IMG/VR virus record: IMGVR_UViG_3300044611_002008
Span: 62,001 to 99,836 of that record
DNA: 37,836 bases
Reading direction: 5' to 3' (one strand)
From: an uncultured virus (IMG/VR IMGVR_UViG_3300044611_002008)
Taxonomy: Duplodnaviria > Heunggongvirae > Uroviricota > Caudoviricetes
In this document: positions 962-36,990 of the stretch, in pieces
How positions within the stretch are numbered: the stretch's first letter is position 1
Layout of the letters: each line of letters begins with the position of its first letter
Notes under the pieces: generated by a model
Database searches by the model: none
Told to the model about the DNA's origin: nothing
The model's input: only the letters and a program-made list of their open reading frames with translations
Position numbers and translations under genes: made by a program

Positions 962-1777
962 ATGGCTAATTTATTTATTAAATTCCCCAGCACACAACAA
1001 GAGCCCCCGATGCCAGAAACAGTAAATACCTCACCTTCGCTGTCTGTTAAGTTTGATTTTTCTCATTATGGTATAGAGGGAAATTCTAAAACTATTACTT
1101 TGCCAAATGCCCAATGTCTTAAGGGCTCCTTTATCGTTGTAGCGGAGGCTTCTAACTTAATACCGGGTAGACAATATACTATATTATTTGAATTATTGAA
1201 CCCGTCATCTACTCGACAGGTGTTTGACCCGGCAGCTATAACGATCTTTGCTTCGACACCAACGCAAAAATTTACCACGGTAGCTAACGTAGATCCACAG
1301 TATAATTATATTTTAAAAGCAACCATTAATCAGACAGATACTGGTATAGCTGCCTCTGATATGGTAGCCGCTAGCTGTGCTTCTATTCCAGCGGTACCTA
1401 CACCAACCCCAACCGCTAGGCCTGTCACTGCATCTATGCCTCGTGTAAACTTTGATGCTGGTCCGGTCATGATGGTAAATCCTCCCAATAGGTGCAGAGA
1501 ACAACTCAACATTATTTGCACCATATCAAATGCCCGTATCGGAACTACATATAAATACGACTTTGTTTGTCTTACTAGCGATGCGGCGCCACTATTGTCA
1601 CCGGCTACCGGCTTTGTGACCGCAGGCTTCTCCGAACAAAACATAAATACCGTAGTGACCGTTAATCCATCCAAAGGCAATATGGTTAGTTTACAGGTTA
1701 GAGTATTTGATGCTAAATATCCTGATATAATACTAGATGAAGATATATTACTAATTCAATGCTATGGGTGCGAATAA
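962..1777 (+). CDS. Putative virion protein with two Cys-bracketed modules and a short PT linker
   Basis: TAGGA RBS; modules contain SNLIPGRQY and SNARIGTTYKYDF...SPATG...EQNINT...EDILLIQCYGC. Confidence 0.85.
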   Translation: MANLFIKFPSTQQEPPMPETVNTSPSLSVKFDFSHYGIEGNSKTITLPNAQCLKGSFIVVAEASNLIPGRQYTILFELLNPSSTRQVFDPAAITIFASTPTQKFTTVANVDPQYNYILKATINQTDTGIAASDMVAASCASIPAVPTPTPTARPVTASMPRVNFDAGPVMMVNPPNRCREQLNIICTISNARIGTTYKYDFVCLTSDAAPLLSPATGFVTAGFSEQNINTVVTVNPSKGNMVSLQVRVFDAKYPDIILDEDILLIQCYGCE

Positions 1778-3342
1778 TGAGTAATTTAATTGTAAAATTT
1801 GCAGAAAAAAATATTTTAGTGAATAACGAAGGATGTTGTTCTACCGGAGTATCTAGCATAGTTACCGTATCGGGTATGATACCCGGACATAAATATTATT
1901 GCGAACTATCTTCTATATCTAGAGGCTCTATTGTTTTTGCTCAAAACAATTTCTATGTTATGACACAGTCTCTAAATCAGCCTATGAATATACCAATAGG
2001 ATTTTCTTTAGAGGGGTCTAGATCTTATATTATTAAATTCAAAATTACGGACCTTGATTATAGAAAAGACGCAAAGTATTGGCTGCCTAATCGCAATGAA
2101 TGGTATAAGAGCGCTTATTATAATGCAGATACAGAAGAATATTCTCAATACGCAACTATGAGCAATAATAATCCTGTTGCAGTAACCAGTAATACTTCTG
2201 GCGACGGTTCTGCTGGGGCATCGGGCAATTTTGCGAATTTTGGAAATACAGCCGATTGGAATGGTCAAGACGGCAATTTGACTACCGTTGGTACCAATGG
2301 CGGGCCGAGTTATTATGGTACCTATGATCAAAATGGAAATATTAATGAATGGCTTGATGATATATCGACCTCTCTTAAACCATATACTGGTGGTTCTTGG
2401 AATAGTCCGATCTCTGAACTTGGACAAATAGTTGAAAACAAACCGGTTTTTGAGTCTAGTTCTTTAGGACTTCGTATTGCTGCCGAGGTTAATCAAACCC
2501 TTAGTATTGATACATCTACTTTTTCCATGGTATCAGGATCTTTTCTAGGCATGAACGATGCGGATGATAATGGGATAGGCTCTGTTCCGCATTCTTTTTA
2601 TATGAAAAAGCATCCGGTAACTAATAATGAATATATGGTATTTTTAAATTCCGTCGCTGCGAAATCTGATAGATATGGCTTATACAATAGTAAAATGACC
2701 ACAGACCCTAGAGGCGGCATTACTAGATCATCGAATACTAATCAAACATTTAGCTATACTTGTAAGCCCAATATGGAAAATAAGCCAGTGAATTTTGTGA
2801 GCTGGTTAGATGGAGCAAGATATTGCAACTGGTTATATAATACCTCTATTGATCCCAATAGTGTTGAGACGGAGAAGGGGTCGTATGAAATGCCCGCTGA
2901 TGCTACTAATGTGCCGTATGTGGGCTTCAATTATGGTGAAGATATTCTTACGGTAGAGTGCGGCAGACCATCTGCGCCAGACGTTGAATTTGTTACGGAT
3001 TCCAAAGAACTTATGAAGAGTTGTGGTCAGTATAAGAGTGTGGTTGCTTCGATTAAAAATGCTAAAATTGGTAGATCATATTCTTATCTATTTTCTACTC
3101 CTGATGATTATTTTGCTAATATATCGCCTAAAAGCGGAACGATAATAGCTGGTAATAATATTCAAAATATTAATACAGTATTTAGTTATAGTGGGTCTCT
3201 TAAGAAAATTAGCTTGAAGCTAGAGGTAACAGATTTATTAGATAATATAAAAACAGATACAATCTTGTTTTTTGATTGCGATACGTGTTTTCCGACTCCT
3301 ACGCCCACCCCGACCCCAACACCTACGCCAACTAATATATAA
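1777..3342 (+). CDS. Putative virion adhesin: module with an inserted circularly permuted FGE-sulfatase (SUMF1/CLec-fold) domain, a second module and a PT tail
   Basis: Start moved to ATG 1777 (TAATG coupling; MSNLIVKF parallels upstream MANLFIKF). FGE motifs: LPNRNEWYKSAYY, SYYGTYDQNGNINEW, GGSW, GLRIA, HPVTNNEY, PVNFVSWLDGARYCNWL. Confidence 0.85.
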   Translation: MSNLIVKFAEKNILVNNEGCCSTGVSSIVTVSGMIPGHKYYCELSSISRGSIVFAQNNFYVMTQSLNQPMNIPIGFSLEGSRSYIIKFKITDLDYRKDAKYWLPNRNEWYKSAYYNADTEEYSQYATMSNNNPVAVTSNTSGDGSAGASGNFANFGNTADWNGQDGNLTTVGTNGGPSYYGTYDQNGNINEWLDDISTSLKPYTGGSWNSPISELGQIVENKPVFESSSLGLRIAAEVNQTLSIDTSTFSMVSGSFLGMNDADDNGIGSVPHSFYMKKHPVTNNEYMVFLNSVAAKSDRYGLYNSKMTTDPRGGITRSSNTNQTFSYTCKPNMENKPVNFVSWLDGARYCNWLYNTSIDPNSVETEKGSYEMPADATNVPYVGFNYGEDILTVECGRPSAPDVEFVTDSKELMKSCGQYKSVVASIKNAKIGRSYSYLFSTPDDYFANISPKSGTIIAGNNIQNINTVFSYSGSLKKISLKLEVTDLLDNIKTDTILFFDCDTCFPTPTPTPTPTPTPTNI

Positions 3343-3357: not shown

Positions 3358-6300
3358 ATGAGTAGCGTTAAAATTAGTTTCGGTAATAAAATAGTACTTA
3401 AAGCTGATACTCCGAGCTGTTGCTCTGTAGGACTCTCTATACCTATTTTGCTTGAGAATCTAATTCCTTATGATACATACACAGTAGAATATAGCTCCAT
3501 AGGTCCCGGCTCAGCCTCGTTCGCTAGTGCGTCAACCGAGATAATAGCCTCCGCATCATCAGAATCTATAGACAATATAGTATATTTAGAAGGTTCCGAA
3601 AGCTTTGTTATCAAAGCCCGCGTAACTATTAACGATAATGGTGTTATTAAGACCCTATCAGAAGATATATTGGGTATAGATTGTGGAGGACTACCACCAG
3701 CTAAGCCTTCTCCAACTCCAACCTCAACCGTAACCAAGACTCCAACGCAAACACCCACTAAGACCCCAACAAATACTCCAACTGGTACACAGGTTCCTAA
3801 TACACCCACACCAACCCCTACCACAAGTGTTACAGCATCAGTCACGCCAACAATTACTGTAACATCATCAAACACCCCTACTCCTACTCCTACAGCGTCT
3901 GTTACGCCCACTATTAGTGTTACTCCTTCTGTAACACCCAGTATAACCCCAACACTTACTCCATCGCCAACCAGAGGCTTGCCCAAAATCAGCATTAGGC
4001 TCGGTAATGACTCTGAATCTTGCGGCTCGGATGATCTAGTTATATATACCACTATCAGTGGACTATTACCAAATACTACATATAAATATGCTTTAAATTT
4101 ACCGGCTGGGCTAGAAGGGGTTCCTAATTTTGGCACTATCAATAGCTCTTCATCAGGATTCGCCACCTGTAAGAATTATTTGATCTATCAGAGTCAATTA
4201 TCTAATAAAGTATGTGGCTTAACAAATTATCCTTTAATATATAGTGTTTATCTAACAGACAATACGCTGCTTAGAACATACGCTATTAATCTTACATGCG
4301 ATTCCACAGATTGTCATTGTCCTAATTTCACAATCTCTGGCACCATACCGGTGATAGACGGACCCTCTGTAACACCCACGCCCACCAGAGAAGCCCTATC
4401 TATTCCAGGGGTAGGAGACTTGGGTTCTTTACCTAGATTCCTGTGTCCATCTATAATTACTAAGAAAAAATTAAGCGGTAATAAATTCGTTGTGGATTTA
4501 CTATCTACGAACAATTATGAGATTAATTTAACATATAGTTTTTATGGATCCCCAGAAAAGCTGTCTCTCTATGATCTTGATGGTACAGAATTATACAATA
4601 GTGGATATATTGGTACTGTAGATAAAGACGATAATAATGAGTATTTATTTTGTGCGGGTATAGATCGCAAAAATCATACCTATGGTACATATGACACTAT
4701 TAAAATACCTAATAGGGGATCGAGATATATTGTTTGTATCTTGGAGTCTGCGTGTGACGAAAGCACAGAATGGAAGATTTCGTTCTCTTGTGCTCCGGTA
4801 CCAACACCTACTCCCACCTCTACAGTAAAACCATGTCCACCTTGTCCATCGTCAACCCCAGCACCTACCACTACGCCCACTAGCGACACTGGCTGTTCAT
4901 ATAGATTTAATAATTTTGTTGATTCTGATGCCAGAAAAGAGAAGAAGTTTGCTGTAGCCTGTAGCGATGTAACAGATACGGATCTTACTAGTCCAATTTC
5001 TATAGATAAGCCAATTGATGCAGCTATAGTTGCTAATACCTTATTATTAGCGGGATCGTCGATCTGTGTTGGTGTTCCGTATACCAATGTAGCAAGTAAA
5101 ATATCTTTATCTAAGATTAAAAATAACGGTTTAGATATTTCGTTCGGAGTATCCGGGTCCACAACCCATTCCTTTAAAAACGATATCGGCGCTCAAGTTA
5201 GTGTGAACGCTAAGAAAATTCTACCTCAAGGCGGTAAGTTTCTGGTTGTTAGCTATACCAGTGGTAGCGCTGTGATATCAAGACATTTTGCTTCAACAGG
5301 TTCTATAGACACGACCTTTGGAAACAGAGGCTTTTTAGAGATATCTGCTATCGAAGACACAAAAATAGTAGGAATAGGGGACGCTTTAATAGTAAATAAT
5401 AATATTATATTGTTCTTAGAAACTTATGATATAGTTAATAAAAAATATACATATAGCGCAGCTAGTATTTCTGGTGCTGGTCGAATCAATACTTCGTTTG
5501 GTACCGGAGGCATTGTGAACATAGACGCCGGATCGGTTTCTACTCAGTATCAGATTAAAAGGGCTGCTGTAATAGATCAAAAATTATTAGTTGTTGCACA
5601 AAATAAAAACGAAACAGGATCTTCGGTTGTTGTCGTGTCCCGCATAAATCTGAATGGTTCTGTTGATACTAGTTTCTATAATAATGGTACTCTTAAGATC
5701 CAACCCTCTGATCTGATTGTCGACCCCTTGATAAAAACAGAGCCGATGCTCAAAACATGTCTCATAAATAATGAAGGCATATACTTAGCAATAACATATG
5801 CTGATAGTAATATGGTTGGAGTATGCAAATACAAATATCAAAATGGTAAAGACGGATCTTGGAAACTTGCGATACCACAGCCGTATAGCGGAGCAGTAAC
5901 GGTTTTACCAGAATATGATGCGTCAATGTTTGTAGAAGATGGTCAATCATGGTATGTTGGTTATAATATAGCTTACAACGAATATACTATCTCAGACACG
6001 GAATTCAATAGCCCAATTCCGAGAAAGGGACCCGTTACACTTAGAACCGTTGCTGATACTATTAGTCGTAATCAAATACCTTATAGTTTAGATCCAGAAC
6101 CAATGCAGAGAGAAGTCCTACAAGATATATCGGATGTCACAGCATCATACGCCCGTAAATCTTATAGATTCGTTATAGCCAAATACAATTTATCATCTGG
6201 TAATACGACTCCTGTACTTTTGGGCGGTACAGAGACCGATCTATTCGGAAACCAGAGAAAGAATAGGCTTAGTGCTCAAAATATACAGTCTGAGACCATT

Positions 6301-6891
6301 TCTGCGCTAGTAGTCTATAATAATAAGCTGTATATAGTTGGCTTTGGGGGTAACGACTATAACTATTCTTTCAGAGTCGCTAGAAGATCCAAAGACACGT
6401 CTGGAGAATTTACTGTTGCTGATACTACATTCGGTAATAATGGTTATATAGAATCAGATTTTGATTATCTATGTAATTACGATATAGAAAACATAGAACC
6501 TCCCATGTTTGAGGATAATCCCTGTGAAATATTCCCAACACCAACACCAACCCAGTCGTCTATCCCCGCTTCTGTAACCGTCTCATCCACCGAGTATGGC
6601 TGTTCAGGGGGTGCTCCGAGAATTACACTGAATTGGTTAACTAATAAGGCCTCTTCTGTCGCTCAAGAATATATAGCAAGAATTATTGTACAAGGAACCT
6701 CGCCAATCACCACAGTATCTGCTTCTGCTTTAACGATTCCGGCTCAGACATTATCTGGATCTATTAATATATCGTTAGCAAATGCCGCTAATTTTAATAA
6801 TCAGATTTGTCAAATACAAATCTTAAAAACAGACTCTCTAGATATTTTATATAACAATGCTTTGGTCTTAAACATACCATCGTGTAATTAA
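3358..6891 (+). CDS. Large putative tail fibre/adhesin with Cys-bracketed modules, PT linkers and a delta-60 repeat beta-propeller
   Basis: 1177 aa; repeats [40 protein letters not shown] and ADTTFGNNG match the delta-60 signature G-x-x-D-x-[ST]-F-G. Confidence 0.8.
3700..3975 (+). repeat. Pro/Thr linker repeat
   Basis: About 90 aa of TPT/SVTPT repeats. Confidence 0.9.
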
Positions 6892-6904
6892 GGAATGATT
6901 AATA

Positions 6905-9043
6905 ATGGCTACACTTCAATTTCAACAAGATATATGGAACTTTTGTGATCTAGAGAGCTGTTTGGAAACATATACTCTCCCTATTATATGCACAGAGCTG
7001 GCTACTAATCAATACTATACGCTAAGCTATGAGGTTGTTGCTGTACAATATTTTGATAATGTCATAGGAGAGATACGTTTTCCAGAAGACGATAATAGAT
7101 TCTTTAGCGCCTCGTCACAAAGTATTAGGCGCGAACCCTCCGTGCTTTTAATAGGTGTAAAAACAGCTATTATTAAAGCTTATCTAAAAAACGATTCTGG
7201 ACAAGCGTTAGCTCATAATACCACTTTGGTACGATGCACAAAATGTCATGACAAATATAGGTCAGATTTTAGTGTTAAATTAATATTAGACGATATCAAT
7301 AAGTCGGGAGATAAGCTGCTACCAAACTGTGATCTCCCAATCAATCTTGTAGCGGTTGCAGAAAATTTAGTACCTGGCCGCAAATACAGATATTCTTTTA
7401 GTTCTGCGCCTAGTACTGGTGTTCATTTTTCAAACGCTTCGGGTGAACTATTCGCTAGTAGTGAAACTGAGCAAAATTTTAACACATTAGTATCCATAAT
7501 TTCAGCCAATACGTCTCCTGTGTTTTATATTAGTTTTAATTTAACAGATTTATCCACCAACGTGTCTAAAAGAACGCCTCTATATGTATTTAGCTGTGGT
7601 AATACTTGTGGAGTTTTGCCAGAATCAATAGATATCAATTTAGATACAGAGACTGTAGATAATGCTTTATCAAGCTCTAGAGTATTTACTATATCATTCA
7701 AAGATATACAAAATAGTAACGATATAGATCTTTCGGATGCGGCATTAACAATATCTAATGTCAGATACAACGGAGTATTGCAACAAAATCGTTTATTGAA
7801 TATTCAAAAAATCAACAAATCTTCTGTTGGTATTAATCTATTAGATAATTCACCTATCCTAAGTCATAATCATAATATTACTTTTTACCTAAAAGTTATT
7901 AAACCGGGCTTCATGCATACTGGACAAAATCTTGTATTAGCAGACAAATCCAATAGAACCATCGAAATAAACCTATTAAACAATAGCGGTATGCCCACAT
8001 CTGTGTCACACGCAACAGTTACGACTACCACTAACAATATTGGAGAAATTACTAATTCAGTCGTACTAACTTGCGAGCCCACACAACTAAAACCGGAAAC
8101 ATGTGATATTATCGTACCAAGTGGAACTGTGTTGAGATCAAAAACTGGTACGGTTTTGAACGGAGATATAACTTTTAGAGCTATTCACTTCGGAGTATCT
8201 GATGAAAAGGCTTTAAAAATATTTCCTGGCGGATTCAATGTGTCTAATTATTTAGATAATAATTATAACTTGGTATCAGATAATGCGGTATTTTATACTT
8301 ATGCCCTTTTCTCTATAGAAGCCACGGATCAATTCGGTAATGTCGCTTATACTATGTCTAAGTCAGCTACCGTAACACTAGAGCTCAATAGTCAAATACA
8401 ATCAAATACTATTCCGCTATGGTCTATGGACACAGATATTGGTATATGGACACAAGAAAATCCAGTAACTTATGATAATGGTTTAGTAGATATGCCTATT
8501 AACAGATTATCTGTGTGGAATTTAGGCATTAAATCAACAGATGTATGCACCACACTATCTTTACCATTTCCGTCCACAGTCTTAACTAATTATTTAGAAG
8601 AGATAGACGAGACTGGTCTATATATTAAGAAAACCCCTTTCTTAGCTGGAGATGGTAGTGGGGTTAATATAATAAAAAGTAATCCAGGACAAAGATCTAT
8701 AAATATCGTTCGATTTGCTAAAAAATATGGAAATCTAACTAATTCTAGCACATTCTCTTTTTATCTAACAAGAGAAAATGCAATCGCAAATACTAATAGC
8801 ATAGGATCCATAAGTTATACAAATTATACTTCCGGTACTACCAAGTGCGAATGCGGAACCATGGATTGCACAGATAATACCGTAACTCCTACTCCAACAC
8901 CGACAATAACAGTCACTAGTAGTATTACGCCCACGATAACCAGAACCTCTACCCCCACTCCTACTAGTACTAGTACATCTACCCCGACTCCAACACCAAC
9001 AATGACACAAACACCACTGCCTCTTGGGGTGTCATCTAACTAA
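6905..9043 (+). CDS. Putative virion protein: two Cys-bracketed modules, a CILP/ZU5-like beta domain and a C-terminal PT tail
   Basis: AAGGA RBS; module motif ENLVPGRKYRYSF...ASGELFA...EQNFNT; later FPGG...IPLWSMDTDIGIWTQE...RLSVWNL, a pattern recalled from bacterial surface proteins. Confidence 0.75.
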   Translation: MATLQFQQDIWNFCDLESCLETYTLPIICTELATNQYYTLSYEVVAVQYFDNVIGEIRFPEDDNRFFSASSQSIRREPSVLLIGVKTAIIKAYLKNDSGQALAHNTTLVRCTKCHDKYRSDFSVKLILDDINKSGDKLLPNCDLPINLVAVAENLVPGRKYRYSFSSAPSTGVHFSNASGELFASSETEQNFNTLVSIISANTSPVFYISFNLTDLSTNVSKRTPLYVFSCGNTCGVLPESIDINLDTETVDNALSSSRVFTISFKDIQNSNDIDLSDAALTISNVRYNGVLQQNRLLNIQKINKSSVGINLLDNSPILSHNHNITFYLKVIKPGFMHTGQNLVLADKSNRTIEINLLNNSGMPTSVSHATVTTTTNNIGEITNSVVLTCEPTQLKPETCDIIVPSGTVLRSKTGTVLNGDITFRAIHFGVSDEKALKIFPGGFNVSNYLDNNYNLVSDNAVFYTYALFSIEATDQFGNVAYTMSKSATVTLELNSQIQSNTIPLWSMDTDIGIWTQENPVTYDNGLVDMPINRLSVWNLGIKSTDVCTTLSLPFPSTVLTNYLEEIDETGLYIKKTPFLAGDGSGVNIIKSNPGQRSINIVRFAKKYGNLTNSSTFSFYLTRENAIANTNSIGSISYTNYTSGTTKCECGTMDCTDNTVTPTPTPTITVTSSITPTITRTSTPTPTSTSTSTPTPTPTMTQTPLPLGVSSN

Positions 9044-9063
9044 GATAATATAGGAAATTTAAT

Positions 9064-9591
9064 ATGTCTCAAAAAAATTACATGTTACTTAAAGCTATTT
9101 TAACAGATGGTAACTATACATCTGAGGATTTAATGATGGTAGAGTGCCTAGAAAACCCTGCCACTCCTGGACCTACGCCTTCTGTGTCGAGATCTCCAAC
9201 CCCGACCCCTACTCTTACTCCTAATATGACGCCTAACCCCACTCCAACAGTAACTCCCTCTATGCAAGTGGATCCAGAGATAGTGCTCAATCTTGCAAAT
9301 AATTGGACATATAGATACAACAATCTACTAATTATTAGAGTTATCCCTGCTAATTCATCATCTAATATATCCGTATTGGTACCCGTTTTACCTTCTGCTT
9401 TACTTCCTCAGCCCGGCCAGCCTGCGCCAATACCATCTTCTGCTAGCCTCTTTGTTGGAGGAAATAAAGTTGGAGATTTATCTTTTATCGGGCCGTACTT
9501 TGGTAAAAGTATTAAATTAACACTAAATGGTTCACAATATATTGGCACAATAAATATAGGTCAAATTATTTTAACTAATACCGGTGTATAA
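9064..9591 (+). CDS. Small putative virion protein starting with the last two strands of the shared module, then a PT linker and an unknown beta domain
   Basis: TAGGA RBS; N-terminus NYMLLKAILTDGNYTSEDLMMVEC matches module C-termini such as FVIKARVT...SEDILGIDC. Confidence 0.8.
   Translation: MSQKNYMLLKAILTDGNYTSEDLMMVECLENPATPGPTPSVSRSPTPTPTLTPNMTPNPTPTVTPSMQVDPEIVLNLANNWTYRYNNLLIIRVIPANSSSNISVLVPVLPSALLPQPGQPAPIPSSASLFVGGNKVGDLSFIGPYFGKSIKLTLNGSQYIGTINIGQIILTNTGV
9583..9591 (+). promoter_or_regulatory. Candidate phage promoter motif GGTGTATAA
   Basis: Overlaps the upstream stop codon, about 50 nt before ATG 9638; recurs at 893 and 10811. Confidence 0.45.
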
Positions 9592-9637
9592 CTAAATATA
9601 TCGCATAGATACAAAGAGTAATAATAAGAGGCAAAAC

Positions 9638-10729
9638 ATGTTGATTACTAATGAGTTTATAATAGAAAGATATTTAGGTAGTGAACCTTTGCCACTATTA
9701 TCAGCTCCCGCTGGATTAGAACCTAGTTTATTATTACAATATAATAATTTTATTAGCAACATATATACAATATATGGTAGTCAAGAAGAGAATGGTATAA
9801 TTCCAGTTTTTTTTAAAAATATAGACGGATCTCCTGGTTCCAGTAGTAGTTTAACCGAGCTTAAAAGCGGACAAGAGTACTATTTTATTTCTAAAAATTC
9901 CGCATCTTTTCCATATGTTATTCCAGCTATCGGCGGCACCATTTCTAATCCTTTGCCACCAGAAAAATGTGCCACATTATCTCCATGCTGTCCAACCGTT
10001 TCGTTCCCTAATAATTCTGTTTCTTTATCTGGTTCTGGAAATATCTATGCGGATATATCAGCTAATACAAGTGGGTTAATCCCCGGTAGACAATATTCAT
10101 ACTCTTATAGTTCATTAGCCTCCAATTGGCCCAGCACAATCACTCCGTTATCTGGAACATTTATTCCATCGACTTCTGGAGATTCTATAACTAATATATT
10201 TAATTTTGCTCCAACTACTGGTAATTACTCTGGCTATTTTCCTTATAAGTTGGATATCTATCCAGATAAAGATTTTAGTCAAAAAAATATATATTCTATA
10301 TTAGAATTAAGGGTAACAGGTCCAGATAATCTGGGCTGTCCGGTTATGTCGGATACTATTATGGTAAAATGCAATCAATGCATACCTCCAAAATGCGCAG
10401 TTAAAAAACCAAAACCAGTTTTTGTTGGAGGTCCCAAGCTGTCTGTTGGGGGCAACTGCTGTGCAGTAGGTGTGCCATTAGCGGTGAATATTTCCGGAGC
10501 AGAGCCTGGGAGATCCTATAATTTTGGTTTTGAGAGTTGGCCATCGGATATCAGTGTATCGCCAGCTAGTGGAATTTCTGGATTTGGAGACGGTAATGGT
10601 AAGATAGCGTGTTTAGTAGATATGGCGGGACAAACAAAAGCTATAGTAAAGTGCGTTATAGAAGATCCAGAATCGAATGAGCATCTTGTGGACTTTATTT
10701 CTATACAGTGCTCCTACAATTGTCCGTAA
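9638..10729 (+). CDS. Putative virion protein: unique N-terminal domain plus two Cys-bracketed modules
   Basis: GAGG RBS; SGLIPGRQYSYSY...TPLSGTF...SDTIMVKCNQC and SGAEPGRSYNF...SPASG...DFISIQCSYNC. Confidence 0.85.
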   Translation: MLITNEFIIERYLGSEPLPLLSAPAGLEPSLLLQYNNFISNIYTIYGSQEENGIIPVFFKNIDGSPGSSSSLTELKSGQEYYFISKNSASFPYVIPAIGGTISNPLPPEKCATLSPCCPTVSFPNNSVSLSGSGNIYADISANTSGLIPGRQYSYSYSSLASNWPSTITPLSGTFIPSTSGDSITNIFNFAPTTGNYSGYFPYKLDIYPDKDFSQKNIYSILELRVTGPDNLGCPVMSDTIMVKCNQCIPPKCAVKKPKPVFVGGPKLSVGGNCCAVGVPLAVNISGAEPGRSYNFGFESWPSDISVSPASGISGFGDGNGKIACLVDMAGQTKAIVKCVIEDPESNEHLVDFISIQCSYNCP

Positions 10730-10810
10730 TTATTCTGTATAATAAAAATCGCGCTCTTTAAGTTTAGCTATAAATAGCCGATTTACGCTTAAAAATAAAT
10801 ATCTATAATA

Positions 10811-10820
10811 GGTGTATTAT
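10811..10820 (+). promoter_or_regulatory. Candidate phage promoter motif GGTGTATTAT
   Basis: About 50 nt before ATG 10863; same motif as 9583. Confidence 0.45.
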
Positions 10821-10862
10821 CTTATTAGATACCTTACACGAATCCATAGGAACTTAGTTTTT

Positions 10863-11507
10863 ATGTCAACTACCGAACCTGGGTCAGAACTTATTTCTCA
10901 ACCCACTCCAACTCCAACAATTACTCCAACGGCTACTAATAAGCCGTGTATCAAGCCACCCAGAATATCATTTGATAATGGTAGTAAAACATCATTGACT
11001 GGAACAGAATGCTGCTGCCCGGACAGCATCATATTGAAGTGCGAGCATCTTCATCCTGGGAAAAAATATACAGCTAAAATCGTTAGCATGGGTCCAGCAA
11101 AATCTAGAATATTTCCCAATTCCATATCCTTTGTAGCCTCACAAAGAACTCAGGAGTTAGAGTTTTTTAGTCAATTTGTATGCGATGATAATAACATCAG
11201 ACCTCTTAAAAATGCTGCATATATTTTACAAATTAATAATGCTAATAATTTAGATATGTCAAGACTCGATATCGGATTATTAGATGTTAAGTATGGAAAT
11301 ACCACTATCGGCAGTAATAAATATAATTTATTTATAGATACAAATAGTCGTAAGATATTTGTGGAATTTGATAATGCTTTAATTCCGTCATCCACAAACC
11401 CTATTACTTTTATGCTTTCTATAGATGGAGATGGTATTGTTGTATTGCCTAGAAATATTATTTTGGACACTGTTGGTATAGTACAAGAGTCTATTGCTTT
11501 GTCTTAA
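10863..11507 (+). CDS. Putative virion protein: PT stretch, C-terminally incomplete module, then a domain paralogous to the middle of the 6905 protein
   Basis: Start moved from GTG 10812 to ATG 10863 (TAGGA upstream); PRISFD...ECCC...EHLHPGKKY...FPNSISFVAS. Confidence 0.8.
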   Translation: MSTTEPGSELISQPTPTPTITPTATNKPCIKPPRISFDNGSKTSLTGTECCCPDSIILKCEHLHPGKKYTAKIVSMGPAKSRIFPNSISFVASQRTQELEFFSQFVCDDNNIRPLKNAAYILQINNANNLDMSRLDIGLLDVKYGNTTIGSNKYNLFIDTNSRKIFVEFDNALIPSSTNPITFMLSIDGDGIVVLPRNIILDTVGIVQESIALS

Positions 11508-11609
11508 CTATATCATATAATGATTAATAAAAAAAGAATATGATACTACAGGAGTATCTTTAATTATATATAATTTGTAATATTGCAAATAATATAACAG
11601 GATAATAAT

Positions 11610-13511
11610 ATGCCGCCATTCTTCCCTCCTCCGCCCAATCCACCAGGAACATCGACTAAATCTTCTGTTGCTATACTATATAACGGCTCGGGACTACACA
11701 GTATAGTGGGACCAACGCCTTTTATGTCTATAGATAGAACTATTAATAGGGACAATGCTGGTGTGCCAACTAGCATGATTACTTCTATCAATCTCGATGG
11801 GAAAATCGTTAAAACCACAGGGTCTCAGTCTGGTATATCGGCTGTTTATAAAGCCATAAATGATCTTAAAGATCTTTTTACTAAATGCGAGCAAGGGGTT
11901 TTGGAGGTCCAGTGCAATGGTACGAACCTAGCTGAGTTTTCAGGGGTTAGAGTTTCAAATTTTAAGGCAGATAAATCAAGCGACAATTGGGTATTTACAG
12001 CAGATTATTCTATAGGCTTAGAAATAGTAGAATCTGCTATTAGCGGAGAGCCACCGGTATCGAACACTTCTGATAGTTGGTCTATAGAGCCTATAGAGGA
12101 TTATATCTATATGACCTGGGATTCCGGAGTACAAAAGAAGCCAGAAGGATCCGAAAATACTAGGATAGGCTCTTTAGGCGGTAGTAATTTTAAATTTACT
12201 AATATGCCCCAGTATAGAGTTTCGCATAGGGTGTCCGCTGCTGGCCTACAATCGTCTGGTAATTCTTCAAGCAGCACTCCTGGTAACAATAATACTTCTT
12301 GTCCTGCTGGTAAAGCAGGTGAGATGAGTAAGGCCTATTTGAATGCTAAAAAGTGGGTGGAACAAAGACTGGCCTGGCCTTTTCAAGGTAGCGGGGCCTA
12401 TATTGCTGGCGGAGGCGCTGGTGGCGGGTCTACTACATTACCTTTTGGTTCTTCGATATCTCTCTTCAACCATGTTAGATCTATTAATTTTAGTCTCACA
12501 GAAGGTTCTTATGAGGTTAATGATAATTGGCTAGCTTTTAATAGTGGGGTGCGATATATAGAAGATTTTTCGATAGAGTCGTCTACTAGTGATAATTATA
12601 CGACTACCGTTAGGGTTCAGGGTACAGTTAGGGGTCTAGAAACAGAAACCACTGGGATATTACGTACTGGCTTAGCTCCTGATAATAGTGGTTTAATAGG
12701 ATTAGACTTCGCTAAGGAAACCGCTAATGGTCCACTAACGAGCTCAGGAGGATCAACTAGTTCTCCTTCGTCAGCTACTCCGCCCGCAACAACGGGAAAT
12801 ATAAAGGCATTCAAATACCAAAATGCCCTAGACGGATGGCTTGATGATATTAAGCCAACTCTTTACACAAGGGCCTGCTCTATAGTCAACAGCAGAGAGA
12901 GAACACAGACTTATGTAAACCCTGCTGCCTCCAACCCTCCTGTGGCACCAATCAACCCCATTTTTGCTAAACAAACTTTGCTTAATGTTATTCCGGTATC
13001 CACCACAGAAGGACATAGTTTATTAAATGGTACCATTTCTTACTCTTATGAGTTTAATAATAAGCAAAATGCTATCAGCGGGACTTTGTCGCAAAATATC
13101 TCTATTACCGATGATGGACCAGCTGATGTAATAGCAGAGACTTTCGTTGTTGGCAGACAATTAGGTCCAATCATACAGAAGATGGGGAAATCTTCTGCTA
13201 GAAAAAGCGTTAGTGTGGAAGTGGTGGTCGTACCACCTTCTAGTATAAGTGAGTTTTTACAAGTTAACTCAAGTTGTCCCTTATATACTGGTGGCTATAT
13301 ATATCAGACTATCGATACTATTATAAGCGGTTTACAGCCTTTCGGGGCGCAGGTTACTCCCATATGGCCCCAAAGCAGAGGAGCAATACCGGGGAATGTT
13401 TTTTTGAATAGCGATAATAGAACTTGGAATCCTACAGAAGGAAGATATAGCAGGAGCGTTTCCTGGACATATCAAACGTGTCAAGCCACAGATAACTGGA
13501 TGAATCATTAA
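11610..13511 (+). CDS. Hypothetical virion structural protein (possible distal tail/tail-tube-fold protein)
   Basis: 633 aa, AGGA RBS, alternating beta-strand pattern, directly upstream of a hub-like giant gene; function inferred from context only. Confidence 0.6.
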   Translation: MPPFFPPPPNPPGTSTKSSVAILYNGSGLHSIVGPTPFMSIDRTINRDNAGVPTSMITSINLDGKIVKTTGSQSGISAVYKAINDLKDLFTKCEQGVLEVQCNGTNLAEFSGVRVSNFKADKSSDNWVFTADYSIGLEIVESAISGEPPVSNTSDSWSIEPIEDYIYMTWDSGVQKKPEGSENTRIGSLGGSNFKFTNMPQYRVSHRVSAAGLQSSGNSSSSTPGNNNTSCPAGKAGEMSKAYLNAKKWVEQRLAWPFQGSGAYIAGGGAGGGSTTLPFGSSISLFNHVRSINFSLTEGSYEVNDNWLAFNSGVRYIEDFSIESSTSDNYTTTVRVQGTVRGLETETTGILRTGLAPDNSGLIGLDFAKETANGPLTSSGGSTSSPSSATPPATTGNIKAFKYQNALDGWLDDIKPTLYTRACSIVNSRERTQTYVNPAASNPPVAPINPIFAKQTLLNVIPVSTTEGHSLLNGTISYSYEFNNKQNAISGTLSQNISITDDGPADVIAETFVVGRQLGPIIQKMGKSSARKSVSVEVVVVPPSSISEFLQVNSSCPLYTGGYIYQTIDTIISGLQPFGAQVTPIWPQSRGAIPGNVFLNSDNRTWNPTEGRYSRSVSWTYQTCQATDNWMNH

Positions 13512-26529: not shown

Positions 26530-26868
26530 CTATTTTTTAGTTTTTTGAGACTCTTCTTTTTGGTATTTGTGCCACCCCTTATTTGGCAACCAATTGCCGT
26601 CATCATCTTTTCTTTTGGGAAATAGGGTGCCTCCCTTTTTGTGCTGTCCGAATGCTAGAATTGCTCCACAATCAGCACATCTTAATTCATAGTAATCGTT
26701 GCCTTCCACAGAACGTACTATGAATCTTAGGTTGGTGCTTTGACACAAGCCGCACTTCTCTTCCGAAAAGATTTCTTGTATCAGTGCTAGCTCTTTGAAG
26801 ATTTCTTTTTGTCCCGCTCCCTCAAGCTCGAACTGTAGTTTATCGCTTGCTTTATATATAACTTTCAT
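26530..26868 (-). CDS. Zinc-ribbon hypothetical protein
   Basis: CGLC...CADC; start moved to ATG 26868, 1 nt after the upstream stop. Confidence 0.8.
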   Translation of the reverse strand: MKVIYKASDKLQFELEGAGQKEIFKELALIQEIFSEEKCGLCQSTNLRFIVRSVEGNDYYELRCADCGAILAFGQHKKGGTLFPKRKDDDGNWLPNKGWHKYQKEESQKTKK

Positions 26869-26869
26869 A

Positions 26870-27610
26870 TTATTCTTTCCATGTTGTAGCATAGCCGAAT
26901 AGGTCTTGTGTGATCAAGGATATATCCTGCTGATACTTTGATAACATTCTAATTAATTTAACAGCATCTTCGTGAGGCATATCATAGACATTATCGTATT
27001 TTATGCCATTTGACTCTAATACTTTTGATACGTTTATATTAAGCCTTTGGGCCATAACGTCAACAAAATTAATTTGATTATTTGTTATTTTTGAAACAGT
27101 ATTACTATCGGGATGATCCTCTATTTCTTGAGCTAATTCTTCAGCTGCTACCACCTTTCTTAATCTTAGGGCTCTTCTAAGCGCCCTACCTTCTGCCCTG
27201 GTTTCGGCTACGGCCACAGGATGATTACGGTAGATCTTGTCGCAATTGCCCCAATAAACGTCTGCGGCGCCGTCTACACAGACAGTATTTAAATCTGGCT
27301 TGTCCTGGTGGCCAGGATTTAAAACGTATGTTAGAGAGTGTACCACGGTAGCCCTTTTCTCATTGTCTGGACTCGGGGATTGTACCACCTGTGTATTAGA
27401 AGATATTATTTTACAGCTCATCGCTTCTTCAAATACTCTACGTAATCCGTCGGTGGTAGGGTTGCCGCTTATTTTTTCATCATCAGACAAAAGGCCTAAT
27501 ACATATTCGGTCCATTCCAGATCTCCTATGGATGGTTTTTTGACCACATTTTCTTGGACAGCGGTTTTTTCTTCTGTATGAACAGAGTCGTTTTTTTTAT
27601 TCTTACTCAT
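26870..27610 (-). CDS. Putative Rad52/Sak-like single-strand annealing protein
   Basis: AVAETRAEGRALRRAL helix motif and C-terminal ITNNQINF...EDAVKLIRML motif, typical of phage SSAP-like proteins; same operon as ssb. Confidence 0.55.
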   Translation of the reverse strand: MSKNKKNDSVHTEEKTAVQENVVKKPSIGDLEWTEYVLGLLSDDEKISGNPTTDGLRRVFEEAMSCKIISSNTQVVQSPSPDNEKRATVVHSLTYVLNPGHQDKPDLNTVCVDGAADVYWGNCDKIYRNHPVAVAETRAEGRALRRALRLRKVVAAEELAQEIEDHPDSNTVSKITNNQINFVDVMAQRLNINVSKVLESNGIKYDNVYDMPHEDAVKLIRMLSKYQQDISLITQDLFGYATTWKE

Positions 27611-28415
27611 GAGTGTCCTTTATTGCTATAATTCTATCTTCTATACTTGGAAATTTGTTATCAATACTTTTTAAGATTTTTTCTAAAGCCTCGCACACAA
27701 GATTGGCTCTAGTTTTTGAAAAATCTTTGGTTTGCTTTATCCTAATTAATACGTATCCTTTTCCTATTAGGAGTCCTTCTTTTTTTTGATCGTATTTTAT
27801 ATTTTTAGCCAAAGTTTCTTCGCCCCAAACCGGTTGAAAATGAGAAGGGCCGTCAACCTCTATTGCTGTGTTCATAGTAGGTAGAAAAAGATCGATCTGC
27901 AACTTTGTGTTTGACAAAACTTGTTCTTTGTGAAAATCAACACGCCAGCCTTTACCAATAAGATATTCTAAAATATGGTTTTCTAATTTGGAACCCCTCT
28001 TACTAGACAACCTAACTGCCTCATTAGCTTTTTTAATCATATTGCTTTTTTTGTCATCAGATAAGTTTTCCCACTGGTCTTTTTTTTGTTTGATAATTTT
28101 TTGTTTAGATATATCGTCCATTCCTTCCCAAGACTTTATTAGACCCATTCCTATTTTTGACTTAGTTGTTTCTGATCTAGATGTTCCTAGGGTTGGGTGT
28201 TTATGCTTACCTGTCTGTAATGCGTTTTGTTGAGCGGCAGATTTATCTCTAATTTTAATACCTAGTTTTTTTGCATCTCTACGCACCTTATTTGCGTATG
28301 TACCTAATTGTTCCGCAACATCAGCAAAGCTTTTTTGTTTTTTGATATATAAATCAGTTATTAGCTTTTTTTTATCGCTGTCCGATAAAGAACTATAAGA
28401 TTTTGCATAACTCAT
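27603..28415 (-). CDS. Vsr/DUF559-like endonuclease with N-terminal HTH and NUMOD3-like motif (putative freestanding homing endonuclease)
   Basis: SFADVAEQLGTYANKVRR (HTH); RSETTKSKIG (NUMOD3-like); SKLE...IDLFLP...AIEVDGPSH...DQKK...GYVLIRI. Confidence 0.8.
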   Translation of the reverse strand: MSYAKSYSSLSDSDKKKLITDLYIKKQKSFADVAEQLGTYANKVRRDAKKLGIKIRDKSAAQQNALQTGKHKHPTLGTSRSETTKSKIGMGLIKSWEGMDDISKQKIIKQKKDQWENLSDDKKSNMIKKANEAVRLSSKRGSKLENHILEYLIGKGWRVDFHKEQVLSNTKLQIDLFLPTMNTAIEVDGPSHFQPVWGEETLAKNIKYDQKKEGLLIGKGYVLIRIKQTKDFSKTRANLVCEALEKILKSIDNKFPSIEDRIIAIKDTHE

Positions 28416-28848
28416 TTGGATTAAGATCTCCTAATACTGCGGTTGGATTTTTCCATATATTACTATATATAGTAGCTATGTCCGGGGTTTGTGCTATAAT
28501 TTTTACCCTATCATTTTCTAGTAGTTCAGACCAAAAACTAAATTTTGTAGAGGTATCGGTCATCCACGGAATATTTTGCGCATAATAATATATATTTTTA
28601 GCGCAATATGAGGACACTGATATCATTAAACCTACTATGTCAAAAACAAATAAATCTCCTCGAAAAAATTTCGCTTGATTTATATGTAATACTGGAATAT
28701 TTTTTGTGTCTATATTATTATAGCTATTAAATATTAGAATATTTAAATCTGGTCGCACGTTCATAAGATGACGCAATGATTCTATTATTTCCTCGGATTG
28801 ACGACCATCTAAATGTAATAATACAAAACCTATTATATTTTTATTCAT
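28393..28848 (-). CDS. Hypothetical protein, possibly a degenerate GT-B N-terminal Rossmann domain
   Basis: 151 aa, ATGA-coupled; alpha/beta pattern ending KIIAQTPDIATIY, like the GT4 'iiavS' strand-helix. Confidence 0.55.
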   Translation of the reverse strand: MNKNIIGFVLLHLDGRQSEEIIESLRHLMNVRPDLNILIFNSYNNIDTKNIPVLHINQAKFFRGDLFVFDIVGLMISVSSYCAKNIYYYAQNIPWMTDTSTKFSFWSELLENDRVKIIAQTPDIATIYSNIWKNPTAVLGDLNPNELCKIL

Positions 28849-29561
28849 AGTAAAAACTCTATAAATTTAGAGATATCGGCACCACCTTTATATAGATTTT
28901 TATCAATAGGTTGCATATTTTTATGGTCTAAGACCGTAATTCCACATGCAATCGCCTCATATATATAACTGTCATTTATATTAAGAAAATACTTATAAGT
29001 TTGTAATATATTAGCTTTTTCATGTTCTGATATTATTCCAACATTATATGTATTTGCTATATCGGGGTTATCAAATAGTCTAATCATGGTTTCTTTTTTA
29101 GAGTCAGAAAGCATAAGATATTTTGTTAGATTAAACGGAATCTCTGATACTTCCCCAAGAAAACCGGCCATGATATTGCTTCTAGGAGTATTGGATGATC
29201 TATCAAAGAATATGTGGTTATTTATATATTTTTGAATATTCACGCATCCAGGATTATCTGTCTCCTGATTCAATAGATGGGTGACCTTATTATTGATTTG
29301 CTCTACTAATACGAGGTCTGCATTATGATGGTATAGAAAAATTTTTATCTTGTCAGATTCAGCGTACTCCTCTATAAACATCATAACAGTGTCGTCTATA
29401 GTTTTTGTGTCTATAATATAGTTTGGAATACCACTATAAGGATATTTAAAAATATTGTCATTGCTTATCGCAAAATGCGATTCAATCTTACAAAGCTTAA
29501 GATTCTCTATAAATCTATACTTTAATTGCGAACTATCTATACAAAAATAACATTTTTTCAT
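28845..29561 (-). CDS. Divergent glycosyltransferase-like (GT-B) protein
   Basis: EKANILQTYKYFL...YEAIACGITVL resembles the GT4 EAmAcG motif; ATGA-coupled. Confidence 0.6.
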   Translation of the reverse strand: MKKCYFCIDSSQLKYRFIENLKLCKIESHFAISNDNIFKYPYSGIPNYIIDTKTIDDTVMMFIEEYAESDKIKIFLYHHNADLVLVEQINNKVTHLLNQETDNPGCVNIQKYINNHIFFDRSSNTPRSNIMAGFLGEVSEIPFNLTKYLMLSDSKKETMIRLFDNPDIANTYNVGIISEHEKANILQTYKYFLNINDSYIYEAIACGITVLDHKNMQPIDKNLYKGGADISKFIEFLL

Positions 29562-30238
29562 ATTGAGGAAAATCTTTTTGCCTTAAGAATGTCTTTATGT
29601 GACCCTACTTTAAATATATTTTTTTTGTCTATTACATTAGTGGAAAACTCTATATTTTGATCTATTAGTTTGTTGATAAGTTCAAAAAGATACAGTTGCC
29701 CAAAAACATTTTTATTTAAAAGCCGCATATTGTCGATACTCTTTTCATCTAAGAATACGCATTCTGACCAAGTGTGTGGTAGGTCATAGAAGATATATTT
29801 GGCCGCTTGTGTACCAAGACTTCCTAAACTAAAGTTTTCTTTTTGATTATTCAGATAATATAAGGTTGATTTATCACTGGTTTTTATTTTTGGATACTCT
29901 TTAAAAAGTATGCCGCTACCAACAATAAATAAGTTTTTAATGTCTGATAAATACTGTATTGCTGTTAATATAGCATGAGTTTGATTAGATTTAGCATAGT
30001 ATGGGTCAACGATAGAAGTGACGGATTTATGTTTATTATTTAGATATTTTCTTACCTTTTCGTTTTCGAACCCTGTTAATACGCTAATTCTAGCGTGCTT
30101 AAATTGTGACTTAGCTTTGGATAGCTGATAGTCTAGCACAGACATATTGTTATTCAGTGATAGCAGACATTTTGGCCCTATAGATTTCATACCCTTAGTA
30201 ATCTCAGAAGCTAAAAATAAAATATTTACATCACTCAT
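29558..30238 (-). CDS. Nucleotidyltransferase-like protein (LicC/NTP_transferase fold) with degenerate glycine loop
   Basis: ILFLASEITKGMKSIGPKCLL...VLDYQL...VLTGFENEKV versus canonical ILAAGxGxR...PKxLL. Confidence 0.7.
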   Translation of the reverse strand: MSDVNILFLASEITKGMKSIGPKCLLSLNNNMSVLDYQLSKAKSQFKHARISVLTGFENEKVRKYLNNKHKSVTSIVDPYYAKSNQTHAILTAIQYLSDIKNLFIVGSGILFKEYPKIKTSDKSTLYYLNNQKENFSLGSLGTQAAKYIFYDLPHTWSECVFLDEKSIDNMRLLNKNVFGQLYLFELINKLIDQNIEFSTNVIDKKNIFKVGSHKDILKAKRFSSI

Positions 30239-30986
30239 AATATACTACTCTGGGATTTTCATACTTATTGACAGCTTTTTCTAAAGAAGCATATCCATCT
30301 TTTATAAAAACATAGTATTCAAAAGGTAAGAATAGTCCATAAATATCTTTTATAGTCATTGAGTTATGGGTAATAAAATCGCAATCTGGTTGGTAAATAT
30401 GTAGAATCTCTTTAATAGAAGATATAGACTTATTAAGATCTGGTATATTGTCTATTTTCCAAATCCAAAAATATTGGGTATTATTCCTTCTCATATTTGT
30501 ATCTAATATCATATTGAGCACTTGGCCTATTTCGCCCTTCTCAAATATGCAGTGTATCTTATATCCATATTTTCTATTGGCATCGGATTCTATAAGGTCT
30601 ATATACTTCTTAGCATCTTCATCATTATCGACAATAATAGATAGGTATCCAGGACAGCCATCTTCTGTGTTTATTTTATTAATAAGAGAGTTATCGAAAG
30701 AGACTCCTCTAGCGTCAACAACCAGATAATATCGTAATTTAAGTCTCTCTAGTAGTTTATTTTTAAGGTCCATACCCTTGATATGTTCTTGATTGCTGTC
30801 ATAAGCAGATTTAGAGAAACCATATCGACACAAATAGTTATTTATTTTGTAATACCCGTGTTCTATGCTAATGTCTTTTTCTTTTATGTTTTTTATCTTA
30901 TCCACAATACCGAATTCGCATTTTGGCTCGTGGTCTTGTGCAGCGGGCGACGAAAAAATACAGTTTTTGCAGTTGGTGTCTTTCAT
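30231..30986 (-). CDS. Hypothetical protein with N-terminal Cys cluster and a possible degenerate GT-A-like domain
   Basis: CKNC...C...C N-terminus; alpha/beta body with LSIIVDN; fold assignment is weak. Confidence 0.55.
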   Translation of the reverse strand: MKDTNCKNCIFSSPAAQDHEPKCEFGIVDKIKNIKEKDISIEHGYYKINNYLCRYGFSKSAYDSNQEHIKGMDLKNKLLERLKLRYYLVVDARGVSFDNSLINKINTEDGCPGYLSIIVDNDEDAKKYIDLIESDANRKYGYKIHCIFEKGEIGQVLNMILDTNMRRNNTQYFWIWKIDNIPDLNKSISSIKEILHIYQPDCDFITHNSMTIKDIYGLFLPFEYYVFIKDGYASLEKAVNKYENPRVVYYE

Positions 30987-30987
30987 G

Positions 30988-31401
30988 TTAAACGGCTATT
31001 CTTTCTATAGTTATGTTTAATATAAATTGTTCTTTGTTGATATTTTTAAGCGTAATATCTGTATTGCTTTTTAATACTGATATAAAATATGAGATATCAA
31101 AGCTGAATCCTTTATTATCCTCTATGATATTAAGGAATTCTGTTTCCTCTACAGCCCCAGATAAATAGTGTTTAGCCAAATCTTTCATATCTAATATGTT
31201 AAAAGACAGTACTCCATTTAAACAAAGCTTTTTGGATAGTTTTAGTATAGTTTCGTATACGGACTCATCGATATTCATGAGAACGCCTGGAGATTGTATT
31301 TCTATCTCTTGAGCATAATAATTGGGTATCTGCGCGCTTTGCTCTATGGTTATGGAGTTGGTATCGTTTGGTACGTGTGATATTATAAATGATTTGATCA
31401 T
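30988..31401 (-). CDS. Hypothetical protein, possible class I methyltransferase remnant
   Basis: KLSKKLCLNGVLSFNILDMKDLAKHY resembles the 'rvLkpgG.l.i.vPD' segment; no GxG motif. Confidence 0.5.
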   Translation of the reverse strand: MIKSFIISHVPNDTNSITIEQSAQIPNYYAQEIEIQSPGVLMNIDESVYETILKLSKKLCLNGVLSFNILDMKDLAKHYLSGAVEETEFLNIIEDNKGFSFDISYFISVLKSNTDITLKNINKEQFILNITIERIAV

Positions 31402-32171
31402 AAAATGAATGGTGTTGATACGACGTGATTAATATGAGACATTAAGCGATCCACAAACTTATCAAAATTATACAAGTTATCGAATTCATTCATGTTGTCT
31501 TCGCGAGCATGCTCTGAATAAATAAGATCATGTATTTTATTGTCTTCTATAAGTCTGAGATATTTGTTTTTAGCGAACTGATTCTTGAAGGTTATTGGTA
31601 GGCAGCCGGCTCGATAGCCCGCTAAAAGATCTATCTTATTGGTGTTATTTAATAAGACCTTATACTGACTTAAGAAACCATATATCTCTTGTATATCTCT
31701 ATTATAAAAGATTTTTGGGTCTATAGCATCATATTTAATATTCTGAGAATCCAAGAACCTAATTATCATTTCTGTGTGATAAGGATCCTTATCTCTGATG
31801 TATAATAATGTTTTATTTTGAATAGACAATGGCTTTATTGGTTTTGGTAGACCATAAGAGTCATCCGCTAAATTAAATTGGTATACATGCTCACAATTTT
31901 CTGATTCGTCTTCGATTTCTGAGATACGTAGATTAACAATATTAGTATGAAAATATTTAGCGATTTCATTTTCTTTTCCACTATATGCGTTATCGTACAA
32001 CAGTACGCATGAAGCCCCGCACGTAATGTCTGATTCATATAGAGTTAGAGTCATGCCCGGTATTGAGCCGAGTATGCTGTCCATTACAGAGCCATGGGGA
32101 TAGTATACTATCCTATGATTTTTTGTGCCTTTGATGGCGGTTCTTGCTATATTAGATAGTTTATAGTTCAT
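31398..32171 (-). CDS. Divergent glycosyltransferase-like (GT-B) protein
   Basis: EIYGFLSQYKVLLN...LLAGYRAGCLPIT...YNFDKFVDRL resembles a GT4 C-terminal domain that lacks the Glu. Confidence 0.55.
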   Translation of the reverse strand: MNYKLSNIARTAIKGTKNHRIVYYPHGSVMDSILGSIPGMTLTLYESDITCGASCVLLYDNAYSGKENEIAKYFHTNIVNLRISEIEDESENCEHVYQFNLADDSYGLPKPIKPLSIQNKTLLYIRDKDPYHTEMIIRFLDSQNIKYDAIDPKIFYNRDIQEIYGFLSQYKVLLNNTNKIDLLAGYRAGCLPITFKNQFAKNKYLRLIEDNKIHDLIYSEHAREDNMNEFDNLYNFDKFVDRLMSHINHVVSTPFIL

Positions 32172-34818: not shown

Positions 34819-34846
34819 AATAAACTTAGAGGGGCTTTCGCCCCTC
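34819..34846 (-). terminator. Intrinsic terminator-like hairpin after ssb
   Basis: Minus strand GAGGGGC-GAAA-GCCCCTC followed by TAAGTTTATT; 7 bp GC-rich stem, GNRA loop, weak U-tract. Confidence 0.7.
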
Positions 34847-34881
34847 ATAGTTCTCTAGTTCCGCTAATGATTGTTCTGTCC

Positions 34882-35312: not shown

Positions 35313-35340
35313 ATAGTAGGGAAGACCCCGGCGATGTCAA
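35313..35340 (-). promoter_or_regulatory. Sigma70-type promoter for ssb
   Basis: TTGACA (35340-35335), 16 bp spacer, TACTAT (35318-35313); the -35 box overlaps the dnaE stop codon. Confidence 0.75.
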
Positions 35341-36968: not shown

Positions 36969-36990
36969 ATAACCTATTTATGATTAGTCC

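Follow-up and report, generated by a model that had tools for sequence, protein, structure and literature searches.

In chaperone-usher pili, the acceptor lacks one strand, which is supplied by a single donor strand. Donor-strand complementation is described, in the available part of one recent account, for chaperone-usher and type V pili as well as for archaeal cannulae (bioRxiv 10.1101/2024.12.30.630787). A phage tail provides another case: in Tuc2009, a 25-residue hairpin of BppU completes the sheet of the C-terminal sandwich of BppA (PDB 5E7T; PMC4742702), and in the extracts of that paper at hand this attaches an accessory module, the joint being treated as one composite titin-like domain. 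In the chain-like fibre of Pseudomonas phage A1002, separate tail proteins are joined by beta-sheet contacts, as far as the available text goes (PMC13730344). What, then, is to be made of a phage module whose strands are shared out between two genes, in reversed order and with an intact gene between them?

The DNA considered here (hereafter the window) is a stretch of 37,836 nucleotides, bases 62001-99836 of a 99.8-kb uncultured virus record (IMG/VR IMGVR_UViG_3300044611_002008). Judged from the ORF list, the genes upstream of this region include a tape-measure-like gene of 3702 aa together with genes resembling those for terminase, portal and capsid. Phage replication genes are found downstream of the tail region. 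At least half of the window's sampled words occur in 8 public runs, all of them labelled lake water or freshwater, and four of the eight are possible sources. The window covers a lake phage's tail region, in which an Ig-like module occurs many times. Module-built genes with Pro/Thr linkers occupy the interval between the tape-measure-like gene and a conserved anchor gene (genes and proteins are named here by their first position; the anchor is 11610). Since the anchor comes directly after the tape-measure-like gene in distant relatives, it is probably a tail-tip hub protein. It has no sequence match in the PDB, its Atlas matches are unnamed viral clusters only, and neither it nor the acceptor-type protein described below matches the GenBank phage collection. 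Proteins 9064, 9638 and 10863 and the anchor match no family in Pfam or PHROGs. Further along, on the minus strand, a run of genes at 26530-34848 includes a glycosyltransferase and an HNH-like endonuclease; these genes possibly serve surface or DNA glycosylation and, speculatively, could act on the Pro/Thr linkers. The same strand carries, at 35337-37689, a DNA polymerase III alpha-like fragment (finger, HhH and OB domains) and a separate exonuclease gene, and the polymerase is apparently encoded as separate pieces.

The module is about 110 residues long, with 14 profile matches in 8 proteins of the virus record. In its complete form (3358, aa 1-114) it is predicted, with a mean pLDDT of 90 from a 49-row alignment, to be a two-sheet, seven-stranded Ig-like sandwich (strands A-G). 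The best structural matches of this model are domains of complement C4 and C3 (Z 10.6 and 10.4, rmsd 3.0 and 3.3 Å, 103 aligned residues), which cover its whole length at about 10% identity; the common fold implies no function. No Pfam family matches the module at the curated cut-off, and Foldseek returned nothing from PDB or BFVD with an E of 0.001 or lower. The loop between strands E and F is where the split copy is cut, and complete modules tolerate 30-residue insertions at this very place. Within 1759-3342, an FGE-sulfatase-like domain (about 300 aa, Pfam E 2e-12) is inserted between F and G of module 1, and the displaced G strand resembles that of the orphan hairpin of 9064.

The split itself is plain from the open reading frames (Table 1). 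Proteins 9064 (9064-9591, 175 aa) and 10863 (10863-11507, 214 aa from its ATG) are intact ORFs, an in-frame GTG lies at 10812 upstream of the second ATG, and the intact gene 9638-10729 sits between the two. An earlier, sequence-only reading had described one module divided between these genes in reversed order; the ORFs, the intact middle gene and the motifs before the start codons are all as it described them. Its exclusion of a frameshift also holds, no other frame at either site encoding the missing strands. It had assigned to 10863 the first 75% or so of a module, to 11190: the module is indeed partial, but the share is nearer 70% and ends near 11180. Nor is the split an assembly artefact, since the DNA of the region is 100% identical in two other IMG/VR contigs and a contig from run X5 covers 6800-12200 with 39 substitutions and zero indels. 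In that X5 strain, 29 of the 39 substitutions fall within 7309-8503 (1.2 kb of the 6905 gene), possibly a recombined patch; the parts coding for the hairpin and for A-E have none.

Table 1. Features of the split module, its surroundings and the related cut sites
Feature	Position	Strand	Basis or remark
Complete module, reference fold	3358..3699	+	structure prediction
Upstream gene: two complete modules, domain X copy, further domains, Pro/Thr tail	6905..9043	+	profile, pairwise comparison
AGGA, RBS-like motif	9052..9055	+	sequence; 8 nt before 9064 ATG
Orphan F-G beta-hairpin (aa 1-28), ending in family-invariant Cys28; putative donor (plug)	9064..9147	+	profile, model
Pro/Thr-rich linker after hairpin	9148..9270	+	sequence; in 17/17 family matches
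Domain Y, small, C-terminal (~105 aa)	9271..9591	+	no Pfam/PHROG match
Intervening intact gene, two complete modules (aa 116-250, 266-363)	9638..10729	+	profile; 53% identical to G002 orthologue
AGGA motif	10848-10851	+	sequence; 11 nt before 10863 ATG
Short Pro/Thr stretch, N-terminal part of acceptor protein	10863..10949	+	sequence
Strands A-E (aa 30-106), conserved Cys50 and Cys52; putative acceptor (socket)	10950..11180	+	profile
Domain X, fused in place of strands F-G; homologous to 6905 domain	11181..11507	+	pairwise E 9e-4
Anchor gene, conserved, always directly after A-E gene	11610..13511	+	locus comparison; no family match
Distance between A-E and hairpin	G000 1.8 kb; G002 8.9 kb; G006 19 kb (complete); G010 21.5 kb; G001 31.6 kb
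Cuts between A and B	L058:5352-9342, L061:468-6733, L011:409, L012:211, L013:3481-6215		only in phages without the E/F pair
Cuts between F and G, Ig_3	L020:4646/4650, L021:7252, L023:3788/3793, L065:6183/6187

The acceptor half belongs to a conserved family. Protein 10863 matches the iterated profile of the complete module at positions 3-83 of 116 only (E 2.3e-9), and its A-E part matches the profile of 17 free-standing A-E proteins with E 1.5e-18. These proteins, 78-82 aa long, form 17 clusters with 18 invariant columns and an invariant CxCP motif. In the relatives the A-E protein has its stop codon right after strand E, and in every locus seen its gene lies immediately 5' of the anchor gene, which is the position of 10863. 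Predicted alone, the A-E half reaches a pLDDT of 69 from an 18-row alignment, to be read against 90 for the complete module with the reservation that the alignments differ. The Atlas look-up of 10863 gave a low-confidence model without a usable match.

The donor half is the N-terminal hairpin of 9064. When 407 distinct ORF N-termini were ranked by an F-G profile made from 49 complete modules only, five orphan hairpins came out at ranks 1, 2, 3, 4 and 8. A hairpin profile found 17 clusters among 1.84 billion representatives, all 17 starting within the first 6 residues, although this profile includes the start and the linker and so favours N-terminal matches. After the hairpin, all 17 continue with Pro/Thr and then with various heads; 9064 shares domain Y with the hairpin proteins of phages G006 and G010, other members carrying different heads. 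Three of the 17 hairpins are of the window's type, with a shorter loop devoid of the loop Cys. Inspection of the sequences found no A-E half in hairpin proteins and no hairpin in A-E proteins. With the G010 hairpin as query, a word-based search returned that hairpin alone, and a scan of viral contigs with the hairpin alignment confirmed the window virus only, hence providing no test for hairpin-only genomes. With 17 A-E clusters and 17 N-terminal hairpin clusters, relatives keep the split, where the sequence-only reading had asked whether they might have a fused gene instead.

It is probable that 9064 and 10863 form a heterodimer by fold complementation. The cut in the E-F loop would make a socket (A-E) and a plug (F-G): the N-terminal hairpin of 9064 would slot into the incomplete five-stranded Ig-like sandwich of 10863, where F would pair with C and G with A; this would rebuild one module resembling the dozen or so complete modules of the same gene cluster. 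A complex model was made from the window's A-E half (18-row alignment) and its own hairpin (5-row alignment). It scores 0.65, above the tool's mark, the best of three controls reaching 0.01; the mark is attained by 116 of 157 solved complexes and by 2 of 215 mismatched pairs, counts that are only rough here because the alignments are our own. The earlier reading had named the lack of a confident predicted complex as an outcome against its proposal, and the model does not deliver that outcome. The runs agree in at least 92% of contacts, with a partner pLDDT of at least 69. The closest contacts are between aa 9-14 of 9064 and aa 69-74 of 10863, and between aa 20-22 and aa 35/37, the modelled F strand running antiparallel to C and the G strand lying next to A, which is the arrangement of an Ig fold. 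The two parts of a divided fold are apt to pass because they resemble solved Ig folds, so that the model speaks for pieces that fit rather than for binding.

Cys50 of 10863 and Cys28 of 9064 are each invariant in their own family and both lie within the listed interface, although the model output lists no Cys-Cys pair. An interchain disulfide between them is consistent with the data and may lock the joint after release of the virion. The invariant Cys52 is not among the interface residues listed, and no partner is evident for the loop Cys that most hairpins carry. The plug would bear, on a flexible Pro/Thr linker, a head that can be exchanged, such as domain Y, and the joint most likely ties this head to a tail-tip appendage, where the rebuilt module would sit among other modules. 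We infer this location from the position of the genes between the tape-measure-like and anchor genes. Binding of the two halves and an adhesive role are likewise inferred. The socket is bare in most relatives and carries domain X in the window's lineage; there, as the cut frees the end of strand E for this second cargo, the joint would be a branch point. The pair would be a closed heterodimer, not a polymer.

Could both halves be functional without pairing only, or at all, with each other? The A-E half might self-associate or borrow strands from another tail protein, and the hairpin might dock on another module, for instance module 1 of 1759, whose G strand is the only other hairpin-profile match in the window virus (E 0.011-0.017). 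The controls of the complex model, being unrelated proteins, are silent on partner specificity. This reading is nonetheless improbable: A-E and F-G are exact complements, the 1759-type insertion is found in the window virus only, and the two halves are present or absent together. Both occur in five distinct phages, G000 (the same virus as G027), G001, G002, G006 and G010, the hairpin gene always lying upstream of the A-E gene. Neither occurs in nine others that have the module cluster and the anchor (G003, G004, G008, L013, G012, G015, G016, G017 and G020, among which G003 begins inside the cluster and L013 is seen as a locus only). None of these 14 assessable viruses is discordant. The count excludes duplicates (G013, G014, G018, G019, L014) and leaves out G005, G007, G009 and L022, in which A-E is present and the contig ends before the place of the hairpin, together with the likewise A-E-positive L023/L054 and the cut contigs G011 and G028. 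Both halves are also missing from G021-G026, six more distantly related records that have no module cluster. In a quick anchor tree with open forks, the positives are found in scattered places and the nine negatives belong to about four lineages, and therefore the 14 viruses do not represent 14 independent events; the pattern suggests that the halves are lost jointly, in a number of events that cannot be counted on such a tree. The window virus is the most divergent of the five, with 32-41% identity in A-E and 25-39% in F-G to the other four phages, compared with 42-58% and 39-53% among these. A 46-aa ORF before the anchor in G020 (L070:9792-9932), considered as an A-E relic, was rejected, 202 of 500 shuffles reaching its score.

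Protein 10863 could instead complete its sandwich with its own downstream strands, the N-terminus of 9064 being unrelated. The sequence after strand E does look beta-strand-like, and the window's hairpin is the weakest of the five, its 7.4 bits against complete modules (rank 8) being not significant alone. Its assignment to F-G follows from its clear homology to the other four, better-ranked hairpins, members of one conserved N-terminal family, and the earlier identification of the start of 9064 as the missing piece is sound on these grounds. What lies downstream of strand E in 10863 is domain X, which in the 6905 protein comes after a complete module; the strands in question are therefore not F and G of the module. 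As the relatives moreover end after strand E, self-completion of 10863, which the earlier reading had named as one outcome fatal to its proposal, is very improbable. A search for longer or fused A-E forms gave 6 matches among 7999 scored candidates, 3 of them true and 3 spurious surface proteins. The true ones, P0019-P0021 (64% identity), consist of A-E, domain X and the rest of a 6905-like protein, P0019 matching 6905 with E 1e-21. No F-G was found in cis in these three by inspection. The search is weak evidence that fused forms are absent; against prokaryote genomes, P0019 had only one weak, unrelated match. The N-terminal side of the three proteins resembles 10863, and their C-terminal side, down to the same tail, resembles 6905. 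This combination suggests that the window's 6905 and 10863 genes arose by duplication or reshuffling of one gene.

It is scarcely credible that the two pieces are leftovers of genes shuffled in a region rich in repeats. Pro/Thr repeats similar at the DNA level flank both pieces and could promote recombination, and the bodies attached to the hairpin vary; against this, the pieces have precise conserved ends and a fixed gene position, and the A-E half is under purifying selection. For the 15 pairs among six loci (the window's gene excluded), its dN/dS could be computed in 8 and ranges over 0.06-0.31, silent sites being near saturation; among the other pairs, 6 are saturated at silent sites and 1 is identical. 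The decay that the earlier reading had considered is not what such values describe. It is just as hard to believe that DNA rearrangement, RNA splicing or protein splicing rejoins the halves ahead of folding; in favour of this nothing was found, and against it stand the reverse gene order, the spacing of 1.8-32 kb, separate start and stop codons, A-E orthologues that end at strand E, no intein family (Pfam) in 9064 or 10863, no repeat pair at the A-E end and the hairpin start, and no joint between these two points in the contigs of 4 DNA runs. Apparent joints in DNA contigs lie in Pro/Thr repeats with sides of 20-30 nt, and were taken as cross-matches.

Fold complementation between 9064 and 10863 may not be the only joint of this type. 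In phages without the pair cut between E and F, some proteins start exactly at strand B and lack 21-22 positions of the model. Wherever the gene upstream of such a protein ends in a module (7 of 7 cases), it carries a tail of 10-17 residues resembling, by eye, strand A of tandem junctions, the seven cases representing about three lineages. An eighth strand-B starter follows a gene that does not end in a module, and for a ninth no predecessor is in view. For comparison, among 13 intact starts preceded by a module-ending gene, 11 tails measure 0-2 residues, one is a Pro/Thr tail and one is ambiguous. Three further proteins (L006:14014, L058:9366, L061:6767) lack 15-19 positions, that is strand A, with no donor tail upstream; the A/B reading leaves them unexplained, and either a six-stranded form or another donor would account for them. 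At four loci, adjacent genes divide a domain from a second Ig family (Pfam Ig_3) between F and G: the Ig_3-type repeat ends after F, and the next gene opens with a G-strand-like segment. By eye, an Ig repeat is also apparently cut after strand B (L021:3241/3245; G005 10354/10401): the upstream protein ends with an A-B-like part and a Pro/Thr tail, and the next one starts at a Trp-bearing C strand.

With these further cut sites, split joints may chain the whole cluster. The earlier suggestion that the split may reveal how the whole family is linked is in line with the additional cuts, the three strand-A-less proteins without a donor tail being left unexplained. Only tentatively, and with more doubt than belief, can the general picture be drawn of a large, branched tail appendage assembled out of individually produced proteins by a chaperone-free plug-and-socket grammar. 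In it, the module would be cut between E and F or A and B, and the second Ig family between F and G and between B and C; the 30-residue F-G hairpin would be a portable, disulfide-lockable tag for recombinational swaps of host-binding heads, received by a 79-residue socket protein. If the 9064-10863 joint is real, it would explain how some ten unannotated tail genes come together in a single structure, and how heads that vary can be attached with no fusion of genes. It would also offer a naturally split domain, 79 + 30 residues in size and possibly locked covalently, as a potential protein tag, and "truncated" Ig fragments at the ends of phage proteins may then be joints, not debris.

How does this compare with the systems described so far? 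Reconstitution in trans, as put forward in the sequence-only reading, is supported by conservation, co-occurrence and the model; the likeness to chaperone-usher pili that it drew is less apt than that to BppU-BppA. As in pili and cannulae, in the part of the account available, a terminal segment of a second chain would complete, in trans, an Ig-like fold that is incomplete by itself. Contrary to the chaperone-usher case, however, two strands (F and G) are missing and would be supplied as a hairpin; pilins carry both donor and acceptor and polymerise, whereas the two parts are here on different proteins, predicting a closed heterodimer. No chaperone or usher family was found by Pfam or PHROGs among 25 window proteins. 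Tuc2009 is the closer parallel because here, as there, two strands would be donated, and neither half can polymerise. In A1002, according to the extracts available, fibre dimers augment a sheet on the rope protein, which is not completion of a split domain. Our literature searches found no paper on the module family; the same searches missed the Tuc2009 paper, and their silence is weak evidence.

The principle is already known from Tuc2009 and from pili, and as Tuc2009 uses it in a phage tail, the present finding is not categorically new. In both phages, judging from the available part of the Tuc2009 description, a terminal hairpin of one tail protein completes, or here would complete, the incomplete beta-sandwich of another. 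No convincing sequence link was found, the module profile matching 5e7t_B with E 0.039 over 35 residues and the A-E profile matching neither BppU nor BppA. In that same description, the Tuc2009 hairpin is C-terminal, as is the domain of the carbohydrate-binding protein that accepts it. Here, by contrast, the hairpin is N-terminal on the cargo protein (17/17), and the acceptor is usually a free-standing 79-aa protein, or else N-terminal, encoded downstream at up to 32 kb. The module moreover belongs to a repeated, Cys-bearing family of which complete copies stand beside the split one. The differences from Tuc2009 thus lie in the polarity, in a small protein dedicated to the socket, in how far apart and in what order the genes lie, and in the Cys pattern.
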